DNA of 32,000 bases, taken from NCBI RefSeq assembly GCF_005696695.1, contig NZ_CP040006.1, positions 420,001 to 452,000 on the forward strand. Reading direction: 5' to 3'. Below are positions 1,006 through 31,507 of this stretch, one piece after another. The notes below the pieces were generated by a model. It saw nothing but the letters and a program-made list of their open reading frames with translations. It was not told the DNA's origin and did not search any database. Made by a program: the position numbers and the translations under genes. How positions within the stretch are numbered: position 1 is the first letter of the stretch; the number at the start of each line of letters is the position of its first letter. The DNA comes from Schaalia odontolytica. GTDB lineage: Bacteria > Actinomycetota > Actinomycetes > Actinomycetales > Actinomycetaceae.

Positions 1006-1044
1006 CCGGCCTCGTTTTTAGGACAGGAGCAGCGCGAGCACGCG
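1006..1044. repeat. Left copy of a 39-nt imperfect direct repeat; orphan duplicate of the menA 3' terminus
   Basis: ccggcctcgtttttaggacaggagcagcgcgagcacgcg aligns without gaps to 4681-4719 (28 of the first 33 nt identical by hand). The minus strand reads ..RVLALLLS-stop versus the genuine menA end ..AALALVLS-stop, but no menA body adjoins it. Confidence 0.7.
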
Positions 1045-1059
1045 TGGTCGTGATGCCTG

Positions 1060-1683
1060 TCAGGTCGTGGGGGTAGGGATGAGCCAGTCGGGCCGGCGGC
1101 CCGGGATGTCGGCGAGCTGCTGAGGGTCGTCCGTTGATCCATCGGAGCTGAGCAATTCGGTCCCGTAGTCGAAGGAAGAACGCTTGGAGTCACGGATGTA
1201 GGCGCTGGCGCTAATCCCGTAGGTGGGGTTCCGTGCGATGATCCAAGTTAATTTTCCTTCGTTGTCTGTCATTTGTTCGTCCACCGTGACGGTGAAGCCG
1301 AGAGGGATCAGATGACTTTCAAACGCCGTCCGTACCTTGTCGACATTGTCTTCAAGAAAATAAATGGTTGGGGAATTGAGGATGTAGAGTGTTTGATCTC
1401 CCGTTGGTTGGCTGGAAATCCCATCTTCTCCATGGCGCAGCTCAAAGTTGTTCTCGTTGATGAGCTCGTTGCGTACCTGGATCAGGGTCGGCTCGATATC
1501 GCGTCCAAAGTCCTCGATGGAGTGCATCTGTCCTGCCTGCTGAAGCTGCTCAGCATGCCATGGATTCATCCCCGGAGTACCACCGAAGTACTCCGCGCAC
1601 GAGGCCGTGCACAGCGCCAGGAGGGCGCAGGCGAGGAACGCGAGAGGACGTGCTCCCCGGAGATCGGTTGCTCGTTGCATCAT
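1060..1683 (-). CDS. Lipoprotein paralog 1 (207 aa, most divergent copy); candidate immunity protein
   Basis: Signal peptide plus lipobox-like LLALCTASC. It shares FGG, PLGF and the C-terminal SDGS.DDP..L.D.PGR.PDW motifs with the two upstream paralogs. Its start overlaps the upstream stop (ATGA). Confidence 0.8.
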   Translation of the reverse strand: MMQRATDLRGARPLAFLACALLALCTASCAEYFGGTPGMNPWHAEQLQQAGQMHSIEDFGRDIEPTLIQVRNELINENNFELRHGEDGISSQPTGDQTLYILNSPTIYFLEDNVDKVRTAFESHLIPLGFTVTVDEQMTDNEGKLTWIIARNPTYGISASAYIRDSKRSSFDYGTELLSSDGSTDDPQQLADIPGRRPDWLIPTPTT

Positions 1684-2285
1684 CCCTGTCCTGAGGGCGG
1701 AAGGTTGGGGTCAAACCAGTCGGGGATGCGCCCGGGCTGGTCGATCAGCTGCTTGGGATCACCGTTGGATCCATCCGAGGGTGTGCCCTGTGTGTAGTAG
1801 TAGGTGGAGGTTTGCTCACCGAGCCGTGTCGTCGCCGAGACGACGGCCTGGTACTCCTCGTTGATCCATAGGTAGTCAACGATCTCAACTCCGTTGGACG
1901 TCCAGCGGTCTTCGGATAGCTCGAATCCGAGGGGGAGGAGACGTGCGCTGTAGGTGTCGCGGATGAGGTCGGTGTCCAGCTCGGTAAAGAAGAACATACG
2001 CGAATGGAAGGAATATAGGGTCTTTCCGTCCTCCATGTAGCGAGCGATGGAGTAGTTGTTCTTGTACGCCATGAAGTTCTCGGCTGTGACGAGCTCGTTG
2101 CGGGCGGCGATGATGGTGGGCTCGAGGTCACGTTGGAAAGCCTCGACGGATTTAACCTGGGGGCTAAGCGGACTCATGGATCCTCCAAAAAACGGTGCGC
2201 ACGAGGCCGTGCACAGCGCCAGGAGGGCGCAGGCGAGGAAGGTGAGAGGTCGTGCTCGTCGGTGTGCCGGTGCCTGCTGTGTCAT
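1680..2285 (-). CDS. Lipoprotein paralog 2 (201 aa); candidate immunity protein
   Basis: Signal peptide with LLALCTASC. It shares an identical 30-residue block PQVKSVEAFQRDLEPTIIAARNELVTAENF with paralog 3. ATGA overlaps at both ends. Confidence 0.85.
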   Translation of the reverse strand: MTQQAPAHRRARPLTFLACALLALCTASCAPFFGGSMSPLSPQVKSVEAFQRDLEPTIIAARNELVTAENFMAYKNNYSIARYMEDGKTLYSFHSRMFFFTELDTDLIRDTYSARLLPLGFELSEDRWTSNGVEIVDYLWINEEYQAVVSATTRLGEQTSTYYYTQGTPSDGSNGDPKQLIDQPGRIPDWFDPNLPPSGQG

Positions 2286-2860
2286 TTCTGATCTGCTGGA
2301 GGGAGGTTGGGGTCGAACCAGTCGGGGGTGCGCCCGGGCTGGTTGATCATCTTCATGGGATCACCGTTGGATCCGTCCGAGGGGGTGCCGACCGTGTAGT
2401 AGCGGGTAGAGGTTTGCTCGCCGAGACGTGACGTTGACACTACGGCAGCGTGGTACTCCTCGTTGGTCCAGAGGAGCTGGACAATATCCACCCCGTTGGA
2501 GGTCCATCGTTCCTCGGTTAGCTCGAATCCGAGGGGGAGGAGGTGCTTGTTGTAGGTGTCGCGGATATGGTCCGTATCCAGGTCGCTAAAGTAATACAGG
2601 CGAGTGTGGACGGAATACTGCGGGCCCTCGGCGGACCTGAAACTGTCGATGAAGTCTCCGTTTACGTAGGCAATGAAGTTCTCGGCGGTGACGAGCTCGT
2701 TGCGCGCGGCAATGATGGTGGGCTCGAGGTCGCGCTGGAAAGCCTCGACGGACTTTACCTGGGGGGCGGGTGACTGCATGAGTCCTCCAAAAAACGGTGC
2801 ACATGCTGCGCACAAGATGAGTGACAAAAACGTGAGAGGGATCGCGACGAGCTTTCTCAT
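2282..2860 (-). CDS. Lipoprotein paralog 3 (192 aa); candidate immunity protein
   Basis: Signal peptide with LSLILCAAC lipobox-like motif. Closely related to paralog 2. Its start overlaps the hydrolase stop (ATGA at 2857-2860). Confidence 0.85.
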   Translation of the reverse strand: MRKLVAIPLTFLSLILCAACAPFFGGLMQSPAPQVKSVEAFQRDLEPTIIAARNELVTAENFIAYVNGDFIDSFRSAEGPQYSVHTRLYYFSDLDTDHIRDTYNKHLLPLGFELTEERWTSNGVDIVQLLWTNEEYHAAVVSTSRLGEQTSTRYYTVGTPSDGSNGDPMKMINQPGRTPDWFDPNLPPADQK

Positions 2861-4509
2861 ACCTTCGGATTCCCTCCGATGACGCTAGCAATGTGCTTAT
2901 TCGCCTCGGTACCTTTCTTGAAATAAGCGCTATGTAGACCGAATGGGTCTGGATAGCGAACATCCCAGTCGTACCCAGGTACTTTTTTCCATACGATGGG
3001 GCCGACATCGCCCGAGAGATGCTTGTACCCGTCCATTTCTGTGGGGTTCTTTCCAAACATTACGTCTGGGCCGACACCTTGGACCATGTCGTTCACATAA
3101 GGGGCTGCACTGACGTACATGTGTCCTTCGGGAACGTGGAACTCGCCCACGTTCTGGACACCCGAGCCGGGCGAGCCGAATTGAACCAGGTCGTCGATGA
3201 CGCCGTCGCCGACAAGCGTTGCCGCTATACCAGCGGTGGTTGAGCCGTAGGAGTGGCTGGCGACAGTGATGTGTGCGTCGCCGGCCCCGTGCTCGCGCAC
3301 TGCGTCGATGCCGTTCAGGAAACTGGCGAGCTTGTGTGCGCCAAAGGTGGCCATCACGGTATTTGATGCTTCCACCACAGATGGGGGAGCGTCGTATCCA
3401 AAGAACTCGACCATCGCGACCTTTTCGCCAGGATTTGCTGCGTCTTTCGCTGCTTCTCGCATGACCGTAGCGTGACCGTCGTAATCGAGGATAGAGCCAC
3501 CTTCACTGTTACCTGCGACGCTGGTCGTCATACCGGGGACGATCACGCCGATGTGGTCGGCATCGTCGGGGTTATTCTGGGAAATTGCCGCGAGGACATT
3601 CGCTCCGGAGGTGTCGAGGGACATGAGGTAGCGGGGTACCCCGTCGCTGTCCTCCTTCGCCAGCGTATTTTCGATCTGCCTAATTGCGTGAACACGATTG
3701 CGGAGTCGATCCATCTCCGCGCGTTGCTCCTCTGTTGGGTTAGGACCGAGAGTCTGTTCGTAGCGTGCTGCTTCTCTCGTAACTTCCTTGCGGCGGATGG
3801 GCAGCATGATGCGATTTGCTTGATTGCGCGACGTGTAGTCGACGCCCTCGAGGTTGCCGATGACGTCCGGATGATGGTTGATCATCCACTGCTTGTCGTC
3901 GTCGGACAGGGAACTCCACCAGGATGCGACTTCCTGTGCAGAGGCTCCGGCAGGGGGAAGCGTGGGAGGTGCCTTGAGTCTGGCGGAGTAATTCACACCA
4001 TTATCGAACGTCCCTGCGCTCAGGGATGAGATCTTCTGCGAGAGAGAGTCGACGAGATCCTGAGCTTGCTTCAGTGCTTTGTTTACTCGCCGCTGTATCC
4101 GCTCCACCATCTGCGGAATTTCATCGAAGCCGTGCCCTTCCTTCATGAGCTGCTTGACTTGACCCCTATCTATTGACACGTTGCCAACTGAATCGATGGT
4201 CATGTGCCATGTGTTAGCCAGTTGCAGAGCATCCTCAACGTTCGCTCGAACCTCGTTGATTCCCTGTGCTCCAGCGCTGCAGATCTCGGCAATGCTGATC
4301 AGGTTATTCACTTTCAGTTCGATGGCTGAAAGCTGCTTGTTTAAGGCTTCCTGCGCCGCCTGAGCGGTTTGTCCAGAGCTGATCAGGCCTCCGACATTGG
4401 TCGCAAGAAAATCAGCTGCTGACTGCATTTGGCGCTGCTTGTGCTCACAACTGACCGCGTAACGTTGAAGCGGCGCCGACTCCCATTGCTGAATGTCTGC
4501 CCAGTTCAT
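2857..4509 (-). CDS. 550-aa two-domain protein: N-terminal ~190-aa helical domain with no signal peptide, plus C-terminal alpha/beta-hydrolase (Pfam PF06259/DUF1023-like from memory); candidate secreted lipase/esterase effector
   Basis: Nucleophile elbow HITVASHSYGSTTAG (GxSxG-type). Candidate acid in DDLVQFGSPG and His in FGLHSAYF near the C-terminus. The central WWSSLSDDDKQWMINHHPDVIGNLEGVDYTSRNQANR block is typical of that family as I recall it. The N-terminus is A/Q/L/E-rich with no hydrophobic leader. Confidence 0.8.
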   Translation of the reverse strand: MNWADIQQWESAPLQRYAVSCEHKQRQMQSAADFLATNVGGLISSGQTAQAAQEALNKQLSAIELKVNNLISIAEICSAGAQGINEVRANVEDALQLANTWHMTIDSVGNVSIDRGQVKQLMKEGHGFDEIPQMVERIQRRVNKALKQAQDLVDSLSQKISSLSAGTFDNGVNYSARLKAPPTLPPAGASAQEVASWWSSLSDDDKQWMINHHPDVIGNLEGVDYTSRNQANRIMLPIRRKEVTREAARYEQTLGPNPTEEQRAEMDRLRNRVHAIRQIENTLAKEDSDGVPRYLMSLDTSGANVLAAISQNNPDDADHIGVIVPGMTTSVAGNSEGGSILDYDGHATVMREAAKDAANPGEKVAMVEFFGYDAPPSVVEASNTVMATFGAHKLASFLNGIDAVREHGAGDAHITVASHSYGSTTAGIAATLVGDGVIDDLVQFGSPGSGVQNVGEFHVPEGHMYVSAAPYVNDMVQGVGPDVMFGKNPTEMDGYKHLSGDVGPIVWKKVPGYDWDVRYPDPFGLHSAYFKKGTEANKHIASVIGGNPKV

Positions 4510-4583
4510 GGCTGGATCACCGAACCCAGGGCGACCGTGCCCATGGGGGCGTGCACGCCCGGCGTGTAGGAATCATTGCTCAT
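4506..4583 (-). CDS. Possible 25-codon leader/partner ORF (MSNDSYTPGVHAPMGTVALGSVIQP)
   Basis: ATG at 4581-4583 (minus) is preceded by GGAGG with a 6-nt spacer. Its TGA overlaps the ATG of the 550-aa gene (ATGA), and that gene has no recognisable SD of its own. Confidence 0.35.
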   Translation of the reverse strand: MSNDSYTPGVHAPMGTVALGSVIQP

Positions 4584-4680
4584 CGTGGCCTCCGCTAAAC
4601 GGTGAGTAGTGTTGTAGGTCATCCTATCTGACAGGTGGTCGTTTTTCACTACTCGGGGAGGACTTGTGAACGGCGGGACC

Positions 4681-4719
4681 CCGGCCTCGTTCCTAGGAGA
4701 GGACCAGTGCGAGTGCAGC
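4681..4719. repeat. Right copy of the 39-nt direct repeat (genuine menA 3' end plus 12 nt downstream)
   Basis: ccggcctcgttcctaggagaggaccagtgcgagtgcagc; see the left copy at 1006-1044. Confidence 0.7.
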
Positions 4720-8655: not shown

Positions 8656-8682
8656 GTGTTTGTGTTTGTGTTTGTGTTTGTG
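8656..8682. repeat. Hexanucleotide microsatellite (GTGTTT)x4 + GTG
   Basis: Read directly: gtgtttgtgtttgtgtttgtgtttgtg. Confidence 0.9.
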
Positions 8683-8900
8683 GCCCCGCTGGTGTTCCGG
8701 GCGTGGTCTGATCCTGCTGTGGGGCCGGGCTGCTTGGTGCGCCAGTGGGCGGCGGTCCGCCCGCTCGCCGTCCGCGCCGCGAGCTTCGCTCGGCGCGTCG
8801 TCTCGAAGCCCGGCCAGGCCCCGCCACCGCCCACGGGCGCCGTAGCCAGGCCGCGCCGTCGCCCATGGGCGCCGCAGCCCACACAGCCGCCTACGCTCAC

Positions 8901-25632: not shown

Positions 25633-26823
25633 CTACTTCGCGTGGTAGCGCGGGCTCGTACCAAGGTGTGTCGGATACGGGTTCGTGGTTGCTCCGAGGA
25701 CGGATTCGTCCAGGCCTCGGTAGGTGTATGAGTTGTCGAAGACGATCTCCGCCGGCGGGACGATGCCGTCGACGTACTGCGCGATCTCCTCTGGGGTCGG
25801 GCTGGACCCGCCTCCCTTGTCCGCGAGGGGGTTGACATCGGGGTACTGACTGGGATCAGTGTTCATCATTGTTGCGGGGCTCGCTACGCCGTAGCCGGTG
25901 TACTGATTCCAGCCGCCGTCCGGGTTGACGGTCGTGTGTATCAGCAGTTGCAGCAGCTGATTCGACGTCGCATCGGGCCACTTCTGGCGAGCCATCGCGA
26001 GGAATCCTGCGACGATGGGGGTGGAAATGGAAGTCCCAACAGTCTGTGTAATCTGTGCAGTCCCGTAGTCATACGCCTTGATAGGGCCTCCAACGGCCGC
26101 CGTAGTGACGGATGACCCCCATGATGAGTAGTCCGCTCGTGCACCGTTGATATCAACTGCGGAAACACCAACTACTCCAGACCAAAATGACAGGCTTCCC
26201 TCATCATTTGTGTTAGCTGTATTACCGATGCCGGCAACGACGATCGTCCCCGATGCAGCAGCACGAGCTAAAGCCCATTTCAGAGATGCTGCTCGGTCTT
26301 GGGACGAGATAGAAATGCTGACAATGCTTGCACCGTCATTAATCGCATGATTGATCAGTGAAGCGTGCGTGTAAACACTTGTATCTTGACACGATGGATC
26401 TGGCACCGAGCTTCCGCTAACCGTCTGATAACTGTACAGAGTAGCTTGAGGAACAACCCCGTAGTCACGTGCGACGAGAATTGAAGCGACCTCAGTCCCG
26501 TGACGCCGACTATCGTCGTCAGGTTTGATCTGGCAAGGGCTCTTATCAAGGACCGTGGCACCAGCGAGTTCTGGTCGCGATGTGTCAACTGGCCCATCAA
26601 TCATCGCAATTGTGACACCTTGACCCGTGTAGCCTTTAGCTCTCGCTTGGTCGAGGTGGTAGTACGCAAAGTAGGGCTGATCGGCCGCGGTAATGGTGTC
26701 TGCGGCACGTGCCGGAGCAACGGGAACAGCAACGAGTCCCAGGGCAAAAGCGGACGCAGAGGCAATAGCGAGTGAGACGCGTGAGACCTTGTGCTTGGGG
26801 GTCACCATTGGCGGGGATCCCAT
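25633..26823 (-). CDS. Secreted S8 (subtilisin-family) serine peptidase
   Basis: Signal peptide VSLAIASASAFALGLVAVPVAPARA. Catalytic triad blocks VTIAMIDGPVD (Asp), HGTEVASIL (His), GTSISTPIVAG (Ser). The start at 26823 has GAGGA with a 6-nt spacer and overlaps the last codons of the upstream gene. No C-terminal TM anchor. Confidence 0.85.
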   Translation of the reverse strand: MGSPPMVTPKHKVSRVSLAIASASAFALGLVAVPVAPARAADTITAADQPYFAYYHLDQARAKGYTGQGVTIAMIDGPVDTSRPELAGATVLDKSPCQIKPDDDSRRHGTEVASILVARDYGVVPQATLYSYQTVSGSSVPDPSCQDTSVYTHASLINHAINDGASIVSISISSQDRAASLKWALARAAASGTIVVAGIGNTANTNDEGSLSFWSGVVGVSAVDINGARADYSSWGSSVTTAAVGGPIKAYDYGTAQITQTVGTSISTPIVAGFLAMARQKWPDATSNQLLQLLIHTTVNPDGGWNQYTGYGVASPATMMNTDPSQYPDVNPLADKGGGSSPTPEEIAQYVDGIVPPAEIVFDNSYTYRGLDESVLGATTNPYPTHLGTSPRYHAK

Positions 26824-28319
26824 CCGTCGTCCTCACGTTTCGCGGGTGCCAGGTCCTTGTCCGAGCCGTAGGTCTGAGACATGGGATTCACGTAGCCTTC
26901 AGGCAGCGCATCGGGATCATCATCCAGATACCTGTAGGCCTGGTACTTGCGGCGTTTTGCTTTCTTATCCTCCTTCGAGCCGCCCGCACCGGCTCCCATA
27001 CCGCTACCCATGAAAGCTCCCCTGCCGGCACCAGAACCGCCACTCTGAACAGCGGAAGCGCGTGCTGCTCCAGGAGAAGCAGTTGTTCCGCTCACGCCAT
27101 TTCCAGCTGCGCTTCCTGCTCCTGCCTGTGAAGGGGCGGAATAAGTTCCGAGTCCTTTCCCGCTGTATGTTCCAGCAGTCAGAGCAGAAGCTCCAGAACC
27201 CCCGAGAGACCCCGTCCCCATACGCGCAGCTCCGCGCAAGCCAAGGGCACCTGCTCCGAGCGCTCCAATTCCCGCGAGGCGTCCGGCAGAACCACTATCA
27301 GCAGCGGGCCCTCCATTGATTCGCCACAGTGGGTGATCGATGTCGGTGGGATTAGCAGGAACATGACCTCCCCACACGACTCCGTTTCGGTGGTGATTTG
27401 CATCAACCCTCGTATGCAGGAGATCCATGCCCATCAGATCCTGCGCGTTTGTAATGGGGCGATCGTAGGAACCATCGACATCGGGCGGCAGGTACCGCTT
27501 GGATACTTGCTGTGATGCCAGCGCACGGCGTCGAGCAAACTCGTCAGTTTCCGGATCTGCATACCCATCCGGATAGAGTGACTTATCGGATCGCAGGGCG
27601 GCACGCCCATAGTCATCCGCAGCGCTACGTCCATAGATTCCCGAATCATATGACGAATACTGCACGTACCCACGATTGAGATTTTCTTGTGTTTGCTCAG
27701 GAACTGGAAGATCAATGTTCTGATATCCAGCTCCAACCTTCACGCCTGTTTGCGTCAGCGTATTGACACCGGCGCTGAGCTCATTCAAACCGCCATTCAA
27801 GCGCTCAAGAATCTCGGTTGCAGCCGTCTCACGCATGGCGTTCGCTTGCGCTTCCACAGCATCAACATAGGCCGATCCCGCTGACAGAACGGTGTTTGCA
27901 ACCACTCCGGTCACCGCCCCGGTCACAACACCAATAGCGGGTGTATAGGGCAGCGCAACCTTCGCAGCATCGCGCATTGCAGCCGTCTTCGAGTCGATGA
28001 GTGTCGGCGACAGACGACGCGCGTCTGCGGCGGCCTGCGCAATAGCCTGACGGGCAGCGACATAACGCGCAATCCCGCCCATGTAGTACGAACGCTTCGC
28101 TTCCAGACGTGCAACAGTCTGATCTGCCCAGGCCTTCAGCGCCTCTCCAGTCTTCCCTGTAAATCCCTGGTGTTCCTGGAAATGGCGAACCCGCTCGATT
28201 GCCTGATCAAAGCCATCAATGACACGCTTATGATCACTATCCCAAGACTGCAATTCTGCGTTGAAGTCCGCTTGCGCAGCAAAAGTCATGAGCCGGTCAT
28301 ACATCGGTGAAGAAACCAT
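26802..28319 (-). CDS. 505-aa leaderless protein: helical hairpin N-terminus, hydrophobic segment, Gly/Ser/Ala-rich tract, charged/aromatic tail; function unknown (candidate non-Sec secretion substrate)
   Basis: AAGGA with a 6-nt spacer before the ATG. The N-terminal two-helix region is centred on HQGFTGKTGEALKAW (h-x-G turn as in WXG100/LXG proteins). Other segments: AIGVVTGAVTGVVANTVLSAG, a long GSA-rich tract, and the end ..REDDGWDPRQW. Confidence 0.75.
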   Translation of the reverse strand: MVSSPMYDRLMTFAAQADFNAELQSWDSDHKRVIDGFDQAIERVRHFQEHQGFTGKTGEALKAWADQTVARLEAKRSYYMGGIARYVAARQAIAQAAADARRLSPTLIDSKTAAMRDAAKVALPYTPAIGVVTGAVTGVVANTVLSAGSAYVDAVEAQANAMRETAATEILERLNGGLNELSAGVNTLTQTGVKVGAGYQNIDLPVPEQTQENLNRGYVQYSSYDSGIYGRSAADDYGRAALRSDKSLYPDGYADPETDEFARRRALASQQVSKRYLPPDVDGSYDRPITNAQDLMGMDLLHTRVDANHHRNGVVWGGHVPANPTDIDHPLWRINGGPAADSGSAGRLAGIGALGAGALGLRGAARMGTGSLGGSGASALTAGTYSGKGLGTYSAPSQAGAGSAAGNGVSGTTASPGAARASAVQSGGSGAGRGAFMGSGMGAGAGGSKEDKKAKRRKYQAYRYLDDDPDALPEGYVNPMSQTYGSDKDLAPAKREDDGWDPRQW

Positions 28320-28336
28320 GTGTCGTCCTTAAAATC

Positions 28337-28786
28337 TCAGAACTCGGGCATTGCGCCGGCAGCCGTAGGAGCATCATCTGGCTGCGCACTTGGGGCTGTA
28401 GAAGAAGTAGCAGTTGATCCAGCGGTTGAAGCGGCGGCGGCTGCGACTGAGGGGTCTGAGTTAAGTGCACGATTGATTGCCTCAAGCACCGCTGCATTGG
28501 CTTCCTCGCTACTAACGGCCTCCCGAACAGCATCCGTGAGGTTCGTCTGGAATGTATCGAAGATTTTGCGCTCGTCCACAAGCATCTCATCAACAGACGA
28601 GAAGAATCGCACTGCGCTGTTACGAAAATCCTGCGCGCCTTGCTCATTAGTCCATCGGGTTACAGTTTGGGCACCATTGAGCGAGCTCGCAGCGTCATTG
28701 GATTTGTTGAGAGCCGTCCCGCCCTCATCCATATCGCCGTTTGTCTGAGCGTGTTTTTCCTTATCGAAGCCATAATCGGCACTCAT
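28337..28786 (-). CDS. 149-aa small acidic helical protein with Ala/Ser/Thr-rich tail; function unknown (candidate partner/chaperone of the 505-aa protein)
   Basis: AGGAGA with a 6-nt spacer before the ATG. Only a 17-nt gap to the next gene. No signal peptide and no canonical W-x-G (it has RWTNEQG). Confidence 0.7.
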   Translation of the reverse strand: MSADYGFDKEKHAQTNGDMDEGGTALNKSNDAASSLNGAQTVTRWTNEQGAQDFRNSAVRFFSSVDEMLVDERKIFDTFQTNLTDAVREAVSSEEANAAVLEAINRALNSDPSVAAAAASTAGSTATSSTAPSAQPDDAPTAAGAMPEF

Positions 28787-29023: not shown

Positions 29024-30484
29024 TTAGTTGCTTGGTGCGCGGCCCCGGGTGAGCTTCCCCAGTTCGAGGTAGCCGGGCAGCGGCTTGTTCATGGCCTCGT
29101 TCGCGAAGGCGACGGGCGCGCCGTTCGGCAGCGGGTTGACGACGCGGATCGCGGCGGTCAGCTTCTGCGCGGAGTTGTTCGCGCGGTACTCCGCGGGCAG
29201 CGGCAGGTGCGCGGTCACCCTCCCCGTCTGGCCCGGGAGGATCGAGGGCAGGGGCGACTCGATCGTCTGGCTGGCCACGATCGTGCCCTTCGAATCGACG
29301 AGGACGACCTCGAGCGGCCACGTCGCGTAGAAGGGGGCCGACCCCGTGTTCGTGAACTCCACGGCCACGGCAGCCTTCGCGCCGTGGTAGGTCGCCGACG
29401 TGCGGGTCGCCCGCAGCGTGTACCCCAGGGCGGCGCTCGCGGCCTTGGCGCGCGTCAGCTCGGCTCCGGTGTAGCCGGTCGAGAACGCGTGCTGGTTGAT
29501 GAGCCACGTGGCGTGAGCCTTCTGGATCGACTCGAGGGCCTTGTAATCGCGTCCTTGCTCCCTGCTCGGGCAACGCAGCGGCTGGGAGAATGCGCATTCC
29601 TGGAAGGAGGGGTAGAGCTCGCCGCCGATGGGGGAGTGCTGCCAGGCGTCCCCCTCGCCCTGGTCCTTGAGCTTGGGGATGAAGTGCCAGTCGGTCCCCT
29701 CCAGGGTTGCGTAGCCGAGAGAGTCGTCGAAGTAGCCCATGCCGTGTGCCTTCGTGGCAGCGGTGGGGTAGCGGTTCTGGACGAAGGTGTCGTCAAAGGC
29801 CTCGTCCCAGGCCTCGACGAGGCGGGCGCGGAACTCGTCCGATGGCATCCAGTTGATGGCCTTCGGGTTTTGGTTGTTGACGTAGCCGCTGTACGGGTAG
29901 GTGTGCTCCTCGCCCCAGAATCCGTACAGGCCCGCGGTGATGAAGCCAATGCGTGGATCCCCGTCGTACCTCTCGCCCAGGGCTGCGACGAAGTGCAGGA
30001 GCATCTCCTGGACCTTCGGGTCGTTGTAGTTGGGGGAGAAGGAGATCTTGTTGTTGTCGTAGAAGTCGTAGGTGCGGCTCGTGTCCGTGCCTGCGTCGAT
30101 CAGGTATTGGGGCATCCCGGTCTTTTTGCCGGGGGTGTCCAGGGTGAAACGAATGACGGCCTGGTGACCGCGAGAGGCGATCGCGTCCAGGAGGGCGTCG
30201 ACCTTCGTGAAGTCGTAGGTGTCGCGTCCGGTGACGACGTCGTTCACGGGGAAGGGGGCCCACTCGAGCGTGTAGGGCAGAGCGTTTGCGACCGTGCCGG
30301 GTGCGCCTCCGTCCTTGGGTGCCCACGGCATGAAGCCCTTCATCGGGTTCGTGACCGGGGCTGGCGCTTCCTTGAGCGTCGTCCACTGGGCGGTGGCGGC
30401 CGACGAGGCCGTGGCCGGGAGCGTTGCGCCCGCCAATCCTATGGTCGCCGCGAGAGCGATGGCGATGCGAGAAAATGTTCTCAT
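29024..30484 (-). CDS. Secreted glycoside-hydrolase-like protein (DUF4874/DUF4832-like by memory)
   Basis: Signal peptide ending ATASSAATA. The NPMKGFMPWAP block resembles the NPxRGF start of DUF4874-type TIM-barrel proteins. GFWGEEH and a C-terminal beta-sandwich-like region are also present. Confidence 0.5.
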   Translation of the reverse strand: MRTFSRIAIALAATIGLAGATLPATASSAATAQWTTLKEAPAPVTNPMKGFMPWAPKDGGAPGTVANALPYTLEWAPFPVNDVVTGRDTYDFTKVDALLDAIASRGHQAVIRFTLDTPGKKTGMPQYLIDAGTDTSRTYDFYDNNKISFSPNYNDPKVQEMLLHFVAALGERYDGDPRIGFITAGLYGFWGEEHTYPYSGYVNNQNPKAINWMPSDEFRARLVEAWDEAFDDTFVQNRYPTAATKAHGMGYFDDSLGYATLEGTDWHFIPKLKDQGEGDAWQHSPIGGELYPSFQECAFSQPLRCPSREQGRDYKALESIQKAHATWLINQHAFSTGYTGAELTRAKAASAALGYTLRATRTSATYHGAKAAVAVEFTNTGSAPFYATWPLEVVLVDSKGTIVASQTIESPLPSILPGQTGRVTAHLPLPAEYRANNSAQKLTAAIRVVNPLPNGAPVAFANEAMNKPLPGYLELGKLTRGRAPSN

Positions 30485-30766: not shown

Positions 30767-31507
30767 TTAGTACGGTCCGCTGTCGACGACCGCCCACGTG
30801 CCATCGTCCTGCAGTCGCAGGAAGACGACCTCGCGCCCCTTCACGGGCTCCAACGAGTCGTCGGAGTAGTTGCGCAAGTAGTAGACATTTCCGTACCAGC
30901 GCGTCGGGTCAGTGTTCGGCTGCTGCCCATGGTTGTTGCTGCCCGTGATAGTGACGGTCGTGTGGGCGCGGTTAGCCAGGAGCGGCAGGAATTCGCCCTG
31001 ACCGTGCTCCAGGTCGGGCGTCTTCGTGTGGCTGCTCGCTCGTTCCGGTACTTCGTACACGCTCGCGCGGATGAATGCATAGGCGTTGGATTTATCGCGC
31101 GATGCATCCCACGTGTTACGCGTGATGGTGTAGGCGATGGCGACCTGTTCGGGATCGGTGCGGTCCACCTCGCGCGGGTCGGGGAGGAGATCGGGGAGCC
31201 ACTGGACCGATGTGGGATATAGGCACGTACCGAGCGGCGTGGGGGAACCGTCTTCGCAGGCCGGGGTGGTCGGCGTCGCCTCCGTCGGCGTCGGCGCGGC
31301 TGTGGAGTCGCCGGATTCCTGGGTCTGTGTCTGGTCCGAGGAGGATTGTGGGGAGGATTGTGTGGACTGTGCCTGGCTATCTGCGCTGGGCTGGCGCGAG
31401 CCGCAGGCTGTACCCGTGATTGTGAGGGTGAGGACCGCTGCTGAAGCGATGCCGATGAGGGTGCGTCGTGGATACCTGCGGGTATGAGTCTGTTCTTTCG
31501 AGCCCAT
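30767..31507 (-). CDS. Hypothetical lipoprotein with Ser/Thr/Pro/Gln-rich linker
   Basis: Leader RRTLIGIASAAVLTLTITGTACGS (lipobox-like), a low-complexity linker, then a ~150-aa globular part. No family recognised. Confidence 0.6.
   Translation of the reverse strand: MGSKEQTHTRRYPRRTLIGIASAAVLTLTITGTACGSRQPSADSQAQSTQSSPQSSSDQTQTQESGDSTAAPTPTEATPTTPACEDGSPTPLGTCLYPTSVQWLPDLLPDPREVDRTDPEQVAIAYTITRNTWDASRDKSNAYAFIRASVYEVPERASSHTKTPDLEHGQGEFLPLLANRAHTTVTITGSNNHGQQPNTDPTRWYGNVYYLRNYSDDSLEPVKGREVVFLRLQDDGTWAVVDSGPY

Follow-up and report, generated by a model that had tools for sequence, protein, structure and literature searches.

A candidate type VII secretion esterase effector with an array of putative DUF4853 lipoprotein immunity genes in Schaalia odontolytica

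The window analysed here, a 32,000-nucleotide (nt) stretch of the Schaalia odontolytica genome (contig NZ_CP040006.1, positions 420,001 to 452,000), contains on its minus strand a cassette of four genes, in which a hydrolase of the family PF06259 precedes three paralogous putative lipoproteins of the family DUF4853. Our conclusion from sequence comparison and structural modelling is that this cassette is probably a polymorphic toxin–immunity module of an actinobacterial type VII secretion system (T7SS, or Esx system), the hydrolase being a candidate Esx-exported esterase or lipase effector and the lipoproteins its putative immunity proteins. T7SS toxins with lipoprotein immunity are known elsewhere, in staphylococci and mycobacteria, but are not described for PF06259 and DUF4853. 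If correct, our reading offers a testable function both for PF06259, for which our searches turned up no characterised member, and for DUF4853, which we did not meet in the literature searched, and it carries the logic of T7SS toxin and lipoprotein immunity into the oral Actinomycetaceae. Over 11,234 nt of its right part, the window shows 100% identity to contig LLVT01000001.1 of S. (Actinomyces) odontolytica XH001, the host of the Saccharibacterium TM7x (PMC4742689). XH001 serves as model host for the first Saccharibacterium brought into cultivation. In strain F0309 of the same species, a functional Esx system restrains Saccharibacteria (Wang et al. 2026, PMC13622651), and only a non-enzymatic effector is known there.

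The hydrolase and the predicted DUF4853 lipoproteins

The first-pass annotation of the window had called the first protein of the cassette a serine hydrolase, on the strength of an SHSYGS elbow with Asp and His candidates downstream, and had named PF06259 as a family to look for. Both suggestions proved sound. Pfam places PF06259 on aa 304-481 with 87.6 bits against a gathering cut-off of 20.5 (E 1e-24), the SHSYGS nucleophile elbow occupies aa 418-423 (GHSYG in most relatives), and in the alignment the catalytic residues S420, D474 and H526 are unchanged across homologues of 31-48% identity. Since this triad is invariant down to 31% identity, the enzyme is probably active. The structural neighbours returned by Foldseek are cinnamoyl/feruloyl esterases and PETase/cutinase-like enzymes (E~1e-4). 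Searching the sequences of the PDB with the hydrolase and its family profile yielded no real relative, the only borderline match being to a Thermomyces lipase, at the elbow and an NDxV aspartate; no relationship to TslA or the Tle lipases was detected, NCBIfam added no family for the four cassette proteins beyond those of Pfam, and PADLOC gave no defence-system match among them. We describe the protein as a putative serine esterase, possibly a lipase.

The same annotation described a helical N-terminus of ~190 aa without a Sec/Tat leader or transmembrane segment. The second half of this description stands: a Kyte-Doolittle scan of the hydrolase found no hydrophobic stretch fit for a signal peptide or transmembrane segment, the highest 19-residue mean being 1.13, compared with 1.8-2.2 in the lipoprotein leaders. 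The helical part itself consists of two pieces rather than one. The first is a trafficking-type N-domain of aa 1-~170, while the second, at ~176-290, belongs to the hydrolase family itself. This pre-domain, which is modelled with confidence (block pLDDT 83-96), follows the consensus PPxGAS..EVA.WW..L....K..I...P..IGNL.GVD..SR..ANR and is kept in all aligned PF06259 relatives.

The three genes behind the hydrolase had been described as translationally coupled and as encoding paralogous lipoproteins, which is borne out by their shared family, their junctions and leaders of the lipoprotein type. Pfam matches them to PF16145 (DUF4853) with 127.6, 130.6 and 144.7 bits against a cut-off of 34.8 (E 4e-37, the value of lipoprotein 1, to 2e-42), and a 4-nt ATGA overlap is found at every junction of the cassette, namely between a short leader open reading frame (ORF) and the hydrolase, between the hydrolase and lipoprotein 1, and between the lipoprotein genes. 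Conserved Cys residues are present in all three leaders, along with a charged n-region and a hydrophobic h-region. What needs qualifying is the lipobox, which in the window is non-canonical (CAAC or TASC): LILCAAC and LCTASC miss the strict pattern [LVI][ASTVI][GAS]C at position -3 or -4. Close DUF4853 orthologues carry a canonical VIAC lipobox, and distant members LTAC or LCAAC. A DUF4853 sequence search of the PDB produced no match.

A PF06259 gene followed by one for DUF4853 or for a different lipoprotein is met again in relatives of as little as ~31-35% identity, and the hydrolase–DUF4853 pair is also met in unrelated genomic contexts. By its position lipoprotein 1 is the likely cognate immunity protein, and the divergences of the hydrolase C-domain and lipoprotein 1 correlate (Mantel rho 0.50, p 2e-4). 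Lipoprotein 2 is found in only some genomes. The lipoprotein 3 type adjoins a hydrolase only in the first, most divergent module of one genome (L010) and stands at the array end elsewhere; given this position and its divergent identity, which is the pattern expected of orphan immunity genes, lipoprotein 3 is likely to be one.

The N-terminal domain and its relatives

The resemblance of the N-terminal region to T7SS targeting domains, proposed in the first-pass annotation, is upheld by computation. AlphaFold2 (AF2) models the N-domain with pLDDT 88 and pTM 0.80 as three helices (aa 12-40, 47-100 and 130-164) and a beta-hairpin (104-112), giving the elongated N-terminal helical bundle of ~110-180 aa that is characteristic of T7SS substrates. 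PPE4 (6uuj), PPE41 (2g38_B), PPE15 (5xfs_B) and EspB are among its best Foldseek matches in the PDB (TM-score 0.5-0.6), and the N-domain profile weakly matches EsxA and EsxB (E~0.03), with a conserved SxG aligned to WxG. The residues W3, W9, G46 and G109 are invariant in the N-domain family. Pfam and NCBIfam searches with the N-domain alone gave only chance coiled-coil matches.

Only 26 relatives of the N-domain were found when 1.8 billion representative proteins were searched exhaustively, and word-indexed searches with the N-domain and DUF4853 profiles returned mostly fragments or close Schaalia copies. Within this family the N-domain is fused to three payloads: PF06259, Ntox44 (PF15607) and Endonuclea_NS_2 (PF13930), a nuclease of the EsaD/YeeF type. 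Downstream of the Endonuclea_NS_2 relative lies a YezG-like immunity gene, which exceeds the threshold of PF04634. One N-domain is thus combined with alternative toxin domains and accompanied by an immunity gene, the arrangement by which polymorphic toxins are defined. The further hallmarks of such toxins, an immunity gene downstream, orphan cassettes and strain variability, are present in the cassette by position and pattern only.

More distant PF06259 proteins connect the hydrolase to T7SS genes. Directly upstream of the nuclease or hydrolase in L019, L023, L024, L026, L030, L031 and L032 lies a gene for a small protein of ~100-130 aa (layouts in Table 1). Most of these small proteins share a SAMPG-type turn and carry [YF]xxx[DE] (YERAD, YTQNE, YTANE, FIAAE, FAHTD and FERTD in different relatives), and they give consistent sub-threshold matches to EspC, WXG100, PE and DUF6317. 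On the Mycolicibacterium plasmid L032, the upstream gene matches Pfam EspC with 34.7 bits against a cut-off of 23.5 (motif YERAD), while the hydrolase combines an N-terminus that matches WXG100 (31 bits against 27.3, motif WHG) with a C-terminal PF06259 domain. The alignment by hhalign of the Schaalia N-domain profile with that of this WXG100-bearing mycobacterial relative has an E of 9e-5 and a probability of 59%. In L026/L027 the adjoining trio is of the AesA/AesB/S8 type, so that here a hydrolase–DUF4853 pair is physically linked to Esx genes. From these layouts of partner, hydrolase and lipoprotein we infer that PF06259 hydrolases are a recurrent T7SS payload in Actinomycetota, with a downstream lipoprotein, DUF4853 in Actinomycetaceae, as their regular companion.

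The Schaalia locus has no such partner beside it, which raises the question of whether one could act in trans. Among related metagenomic sequences, a close relative without a partner (L028) and one with a partner (L030) both exist; the protein of L030 is found again in L029, which comes from a human oral metagenome. This coexistence suggests trans-complementation. In addition, XH001 possesses a second module, consisting of the small hypothetical gene APY09_01990, the alpha/beta hydrolase gene 01985 and the DUF4853 gene 01980; on association with TM7x, APY09_01990 is up ~2-fold and APY09_01980 down ~2-fold (PMC10768705 supplement). The annotation of XH001 also includes a WXG100 gene, APY09_01345, whose expression rises when TM7x is associated with the host. 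Taking L028, L030 and the second module together, it is plausible that the window hydrolase uses a trans-acting partner such as the small gene of that module.

Parallels with described systems are partial. LipY of Mycobacterium tuberculosis is a lipase that leaves the cell through ESX-5 and carries a helical targeting domain, of the PE family, at its N-terminus; its catalytic domain is of the hormone-sensitive-lipase type, and it is not known to form part of a toxin–immunity pair. Unlike LipY, the Schaalia hydrolase is not matched by Pfam PE. Closer in layout are EatA/TapA1-TapA2/EatI of Mycobacterium abscessus and the 'Eat-like' loci predicted across Actinomycetota (Benedict et al. 2026, PMC13444075). 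Of the payload families predicted most often for these loci, that paper lists alpha/beta hydrolases first, and where the target is extracellular it describes immunity by lipoproteins. The EatA system is likewise actinobacterial and joins a helical-bundle N-terminus to an enzymatic C-terminus acting outside the membrane, with a downstream lipoprotein inhibitor (a candidate one in Schaalia), and distant relatives of the Schaalia hydrolase have exactly the layout of Eat-type loci. The payloads differ, being a PF06259 esterase in Schaalia and a wall-degrading GH183 arabinanase in EatA, as do the immunity proteins, the place of EatI being taken in Schaalia by three tandem DUF4853 candidates.

The staphylococcal system TslA/TilA (with TlaA1 and TlaA2) offers another close functional analogy. 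TslA is a T7SS-secreted GxSxG serine lipase toxin of Staphylococcus aureus, a phospholipase that attacks the membrane from outside (Garrett et al. 2023, PMC10730906), and the statement in the first-pass annotation that its immunity comes from tandem lipoprotein-family genes is correct (PMC10730906). Both systems pair a GxSxG-type hydrolase with lipoprotein genes in variable tandem arrays of paralogues, the lipoprotein TilA neutralising TslA. Unlike the Schaalia protein, TslA has its lipase at the N-terminus and its LXG-like domain at the C-terminus, and it belongs to the T7SSb of Bacillota, with DUF576 immunity encoded upstream and two adjacent helical partner genes. The hydrolase domains of the two show no match in sequence or fold; the Schaalia protein is a functional analogue of TslA and not a member of its family. 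A further parallel is with the LXG/WXG100 nuclease toxins YeeF-YezG and EsaD-EsaG, in that the N-domain family also occurs on Endonuclea_NS_2 with a YezG-like gene after it and a small helical partner before it; those are cytoplasmic nucleases with cytoplasmic immunity, in contrast to a candidate surface esterase with lipoprotein immunity, and the N-domain of the Schaalia protein is not recognised by the LXG model of Pfam.

Island structure and competing explanations

The cassette was compared with 14 Schaalia/Actinomyces genome loci (L001-L014), giving 15 aligned sequences with the window. In all 14 it lies between menA and a major facilitator superfamily (MFS) gene, within conserved surroundings: the flanking proteins (MenA, MenE, the L,D-transpeptidase Ldt and the MFS protein) are mostly 91-97% identical to those of the window, with MenE/MenA at 82-86% in one genome, compared with only 59-70% for the hydrolase in most genomes. 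The cassette has a GC content of 58%, its flanks one of 69-70%; GC at third codon positions (GC3) is 0.61-0.75 in the former and 0.84-0.86 in the latter. Each module contains 1, 2 or 3 DUF4853 genes, and two genomes (L002 and L010) have two complete tandem modules with a menA 3' fragment between them (L002 12853-12983, L010 9673-9804). As copies of the menA 3' end stand both at the island edges and between tandem modules, recombination at this repeat is suggested as the route by which modules are gained and lost. The low GC, the repeats, the fast divergence and the variable lipoprotein number support the view that the cassette evolves like a toxin–immunity island.

Four allele groups can be told apart in the N-domain, with 35-70% identity between groups, while the hydrolase domain is 70-93% identical across L001-L014; this unequal divergence marks the gene as a recombination mosaic. 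An N-domain more polymorphic than the catalytic domain is the reverse of the classical polymorphic-toxin pattern. In the closest metagenomic homologues, the C-domain is 94-99% identical to that of the window and the N-domain only 63-68%.

The ~220 nt upstream of the hydrolase are conserved as a whole (89% mean column identity over the 15 sequences), far above the gene behind them. They contain the 25-aa leader ORF, with which the right-hand limit of the cassette in the first-pass annotation, position 4583, has to be reassigned, since it is the start of this ORF and not of the hydrolase. The ORF, its ATG and its Shine-Dalgarno sequence are kept in 14 of the 15 loci. Codons 1-8 are near-invariant in DNA (one synonymous and two other substitutions), while later codons vary non-synonymously, suggesting that the ORF serves translational coupling rather than encoding a functional peptide; coupling also seems likely because the hydrolase starts with GTG in most relatives. 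The ORF was also considered as the remnant of a partner C-terminus, but the slight resemblance (SYTPG to SYQYPG and GYNYPSG) is too weak for such a claim. A scan for consensus sigma-70 promoters found none, terminator-like matches lie within coding sequence, and Rfam gave no match on the cassette locus or its leader.

For the secretion machinery, the first-pass annotation had noted that no ecc/ess genes lie in the window. The 32,000 nt indeed contain no ecc genes, but genes resembling those of Esx substrates are present at 25633-28786. They form an AesA/AesB-like pair, 21 kb from the cassette, with a protease gene. In F0309, AesA and AesB are co-secreted, and the GYVNP motif of AesB, which has the same architecture as the 505-aa protein of the window, is functional (PMC13622651). 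These F0309 effectors come from the same species as the cassette, which would presumably share their secretion machine. The two differ in build: AesB lacks an enzyme domain and is accompanied by no immunity genes, and its C-terminus is Gly-rich and disordered. Neither BLASTP nor hhalign relates the hydrolase N-domain to that of the AesB-like protein.

Under the toxin–immunity reading, the Esx machinery would recognise the N-domain, either by itself or together with a partner whose gene lies elsewhere, and the hydrolase would be exported folded. Its esterase or lipase domain would attack some ester-linked component at the outer surface of a neighbour's envelope, candidate targets being a membrane lipid, a glycolipid, lipoteichoic acid or a wall ester; the victim could be a competing Actinomycetaceae strain or possibly an epibiont. 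On the outer face of the producer membrane, the DUF4853 lipoproteins would bind and block the hydrolase, with lipoprotein 1 as the cognate inhibitor and the extra, divergent copies guarding against the hydrolase variants of other strains. The partner-less, WxG-less form could then reveal what portion of the composite T7SS signal is required. We have also considered a narrower version in which XH001 directs the Esx-delivered effector at the Saccharibacteria (TM7x) attached to its surface, hydrolysing their envelope lipids where the cells touch while DUF4853 shields the host membrane, with the unusually rapid evolution of the N-domain and the loss of the adjacent partner and of WxG reflecting an arms race or partner-independent T7SS recognition; this version we think rather improbable.

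A number of observations weigh against the toxin–immunity reading as a whole, and many of them concern the route of export. No Pfam T7SS family (WXG100, LXG, PE, PPE or EspC) is found in the N-domain of the window even at E<=1, so that the search for WXG100/LXG/PE-like families proposed with the first-pass annotation came out negative for the protein itself. The tryptophan of WxG is replaced by Ser (SSG), the [YF]xxx[DE] motif is absent from the window and the 14 Schaalia loci, and the Foldseek matches to PPE proteins and EspB fall short of significance (E 0.06-0.7) and stand among generic helical bundles. The window and the 14 loci alike lack an adjacent partner gene, since all that lies between menA and the hydrolase is ~180 nt with the 25-aa ORF, and tblastn with the partner proteins against the window and the Schaalia loci found no homologue; an upstream Tap-like gene, which is a conserved feature of Eat loci according to PMC13444075, is likewise missing. 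In the F0309 secretome, only EsxA, EsxB, AesA and AesB were detected as Esx-dependent; according to Wang et al., all distal candidate substrates have an adjacent WXG100-like gene, unlike the cassette locus, and their main text names no hydrolase, lipase or lipoprotein (PMC13622651). Of these points, the missing partner gene, tryptophan and YxxxD/E motif and the lack of a hydrolase among the Esx-dependent proteins reported for F0309 would suit a toxin–immunity module exported by a route other than Esx, with the N-domain serving, for instance, in oligomerisation, in docking to the membrane or in release through lysis or vesicles. We give that explanation only a slim chance, given that homologous N-domains adjoin EspC/WXG100-type partners and one of them passes the WXG100 threshold, that the coexistence of L028 and L030 suggests complementation in trans, and that the second XH001 module does have a small gene upstream.

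The remaining objections concern the role of the enzyme as a weapon. The AF2 model of the hydrolase domain is of moderate quality (pLDDT 70), with a poor C-terminal third; its structural neighbours are esterases and cutinases, with no known phospholipase toxin among them; the co-variation of the C-domain with lipoprotein 1 could arise from linkage alone; and the three hydrolases of L024 have no immunity-like gene interleaved. Furthermore, a transposon-sequencing (Tn-seq) list of 203 putatively essential XH001 genes includes none of the four cassette genes, so loss of a single lipoprotein is tolerated in XH001 monoculture and no self-intoxication is evident there, a result that fits with redundancy or an uninduced toxin but gives no positive support. 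The hydrolase might instead be exported, by Esx or otherwise, for remodelling of the cell's own envelope or for scavenging esterified nutrients, with the DUF4853 proteins as docking, activating or regulating partners. The feruloyl/cinnamoyl esterase and cutinase-like nearest structures and the non-essential lipoprotein genes speak for this, as does the cell-surface remodelling that accompanies Esx induction in Schaalia (PMC13622651). A housekeeping role, on the other hand, does not predict a low-GC, repeat-flanked and fast-diverging island with variable and orphan lipoproteins, nor an N-domain that also occurs on nuclease and Ntox44 toxins with a known immunity family downstream, and we consider it unlikely, if a little less so than export by another route. 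The position of the cassette, between menA/menE and other men genes (menB, menD, menF and ubiE), could also be taken to indicate a cytoplasmic enzyme of the menaquinone cluster, for example of the MenH type, with the lipoproteins as unrelated neighbours. MenH, the SHCHC synthase, is a protein of ~260 aa of the Abhydrolase_1/6 type. The hydrolase belongs to PF06259 and to no MenH family, has 550 aa with a trafficking-type N-domain, and is hypervariable among men genes that are mostly 91-97% identical (82-86% in one genome); together with the atypical composition of the cassette and the presence of the hydrolase–DUF4853 pair in unrelated contexts, this effectively refutes the menaquinone explanation.

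Coordinates and neighbouring features

The features of the cassette, of its relatives and of the second island are collected in Table 1.

Table 1. Positions of the cassette and second-island features in the window, and layouts of relatives that carry partner genes (the range given for L024 is in its own sequence).
Feature	Position	Strand	Description or basis
Hydrolase	2857-4509	minus	550 aa; PF06259 Abhydrolase_8 (formerly DUF1023)
Hydrolase aa 1-170	4000-4509	minus	Helical N-domain, putative T7SS trafficking domain; model, Foldseek, profile searches
Hydrolase aa ~176-295	3625-3984	minus	Conserved helical pre-domain with long helical hairpin; alignment and model
Hydrolase aa ~296-550	2857-3624	minus	Alpha/beta-hydrolase core (PF06259) and stop codon; Pfam, alignment, Foldseek
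Catalytic codons	S420 3250-3252; D474 3088-3090; H526 2932-2934	minus	
DUF4853 lipoprotein 1	2282-2860	minus	192 aa; PF16145; likely cognate immunity protein by position
DUF4853 lipoprotein 2	1680-2285	minus	201 aa; PF16145; ~67% identical to lipoprotein 1
DUF4853 lipoprotein 3	1060-1683	minus	207 aa; PF16145; divergent, 33-40% identical to lipoproteins 1 and 2
Leader ORF	4506-4583	minus	25 aa, MSNDSYTPGVHAPMGTVALGSVIQP; stop overlaps hydrolase start (ATGA here, GTGA in most relatives)
Conserved leader, probable promoter region	4584-4680	minus	GGAGG Shine-Dalgarno sequence ahead of leader ORF
Left 33-nt direct repeat	4681-4713	.	menA 3' end and adjoining bases; 85% identical to 1006-1038
Right 33-nt direct repeat	1006-1038	.	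Remnant menA 3' end, translates ALALLLS*; repeat search
Second low-GC island	25633-28786	minus	Not part of cassette; GC3 0.51-0.59; three genes
149-aa helical protein	28337-28786	minus	Second island; forms AesA/AesB-like pair with AesB-like gene
505-aa AesB-like protein	26802-28319	minus	Helical N-terminus, Gly-rich region, charged C-terminus with GYVNP
Mycosin-like S8 protease	25633-26823	minus	Signal peptide, no C-terminal anchor; best NCBIfam match T7SS mycosin, below threshold
L019			Two nucleases, each preceded by a 109-aa hairpin protein
L023			112-aa protein, hydrolase, DUF4853-like protein
L024	249-7043		Metagenomic; three tandem pairs of 114-aa protein and PF06259 hydrolase
L026/L027			111-aa protein, hydrolase, DUF4853 lipoprotein; adjoins WXG100 gene and trio of 139-aa, 510/525-aa Gly-rich and S8 protease proteins
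L030			133-aa protein, hydrolase, DUF4853
L031, Amycolatopsis plasmid			113-aa protein, hydrolase
L032, Mycolicibacterium plasmid			EspC-family 'type VII secretion target', 596-aa hydrolase, overlapping LAGC lipoprotein

The second island is itself variable between strains: the pair of 149- and 505-aa genes is absent from L016-L018, and the S8 gene is inverted in L017, shortened in L016 and not identified in L018. The two islands interrupt a dispersed menaquinone set at 4693-25562, consisting of menA, menE, a menB-like gene of the enoyl-CoA hydratase type, a menD-like gene for a thiamine-pyrophosphate enzyme, a menF-like chorismate-binding gene and ubiE; a sugar ATP-binding cassette transporter, a glycoside hydrolase of family GH66 and an alpha-amylase-family gene lie within the same stretch. 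Downstream of the L,D-transpeptidase gene, the intergenic DNA contains a perfect (GTGTTT)x4.5 microsatellite and a 32-nt repeat in 2.1 copies (8656-8682 and 8813-8879). Two DUF4832 paralogues (29024-30484, minus strand, and L015 1920-3602) are separated by ~9 kb and align over 1.5 kb with 73.5% DNA identity, and beside one of them is a gene for a predicted lipoprotein of 246 aa (30767-31507), rich in Ser, Thr and Gln, with no family match.

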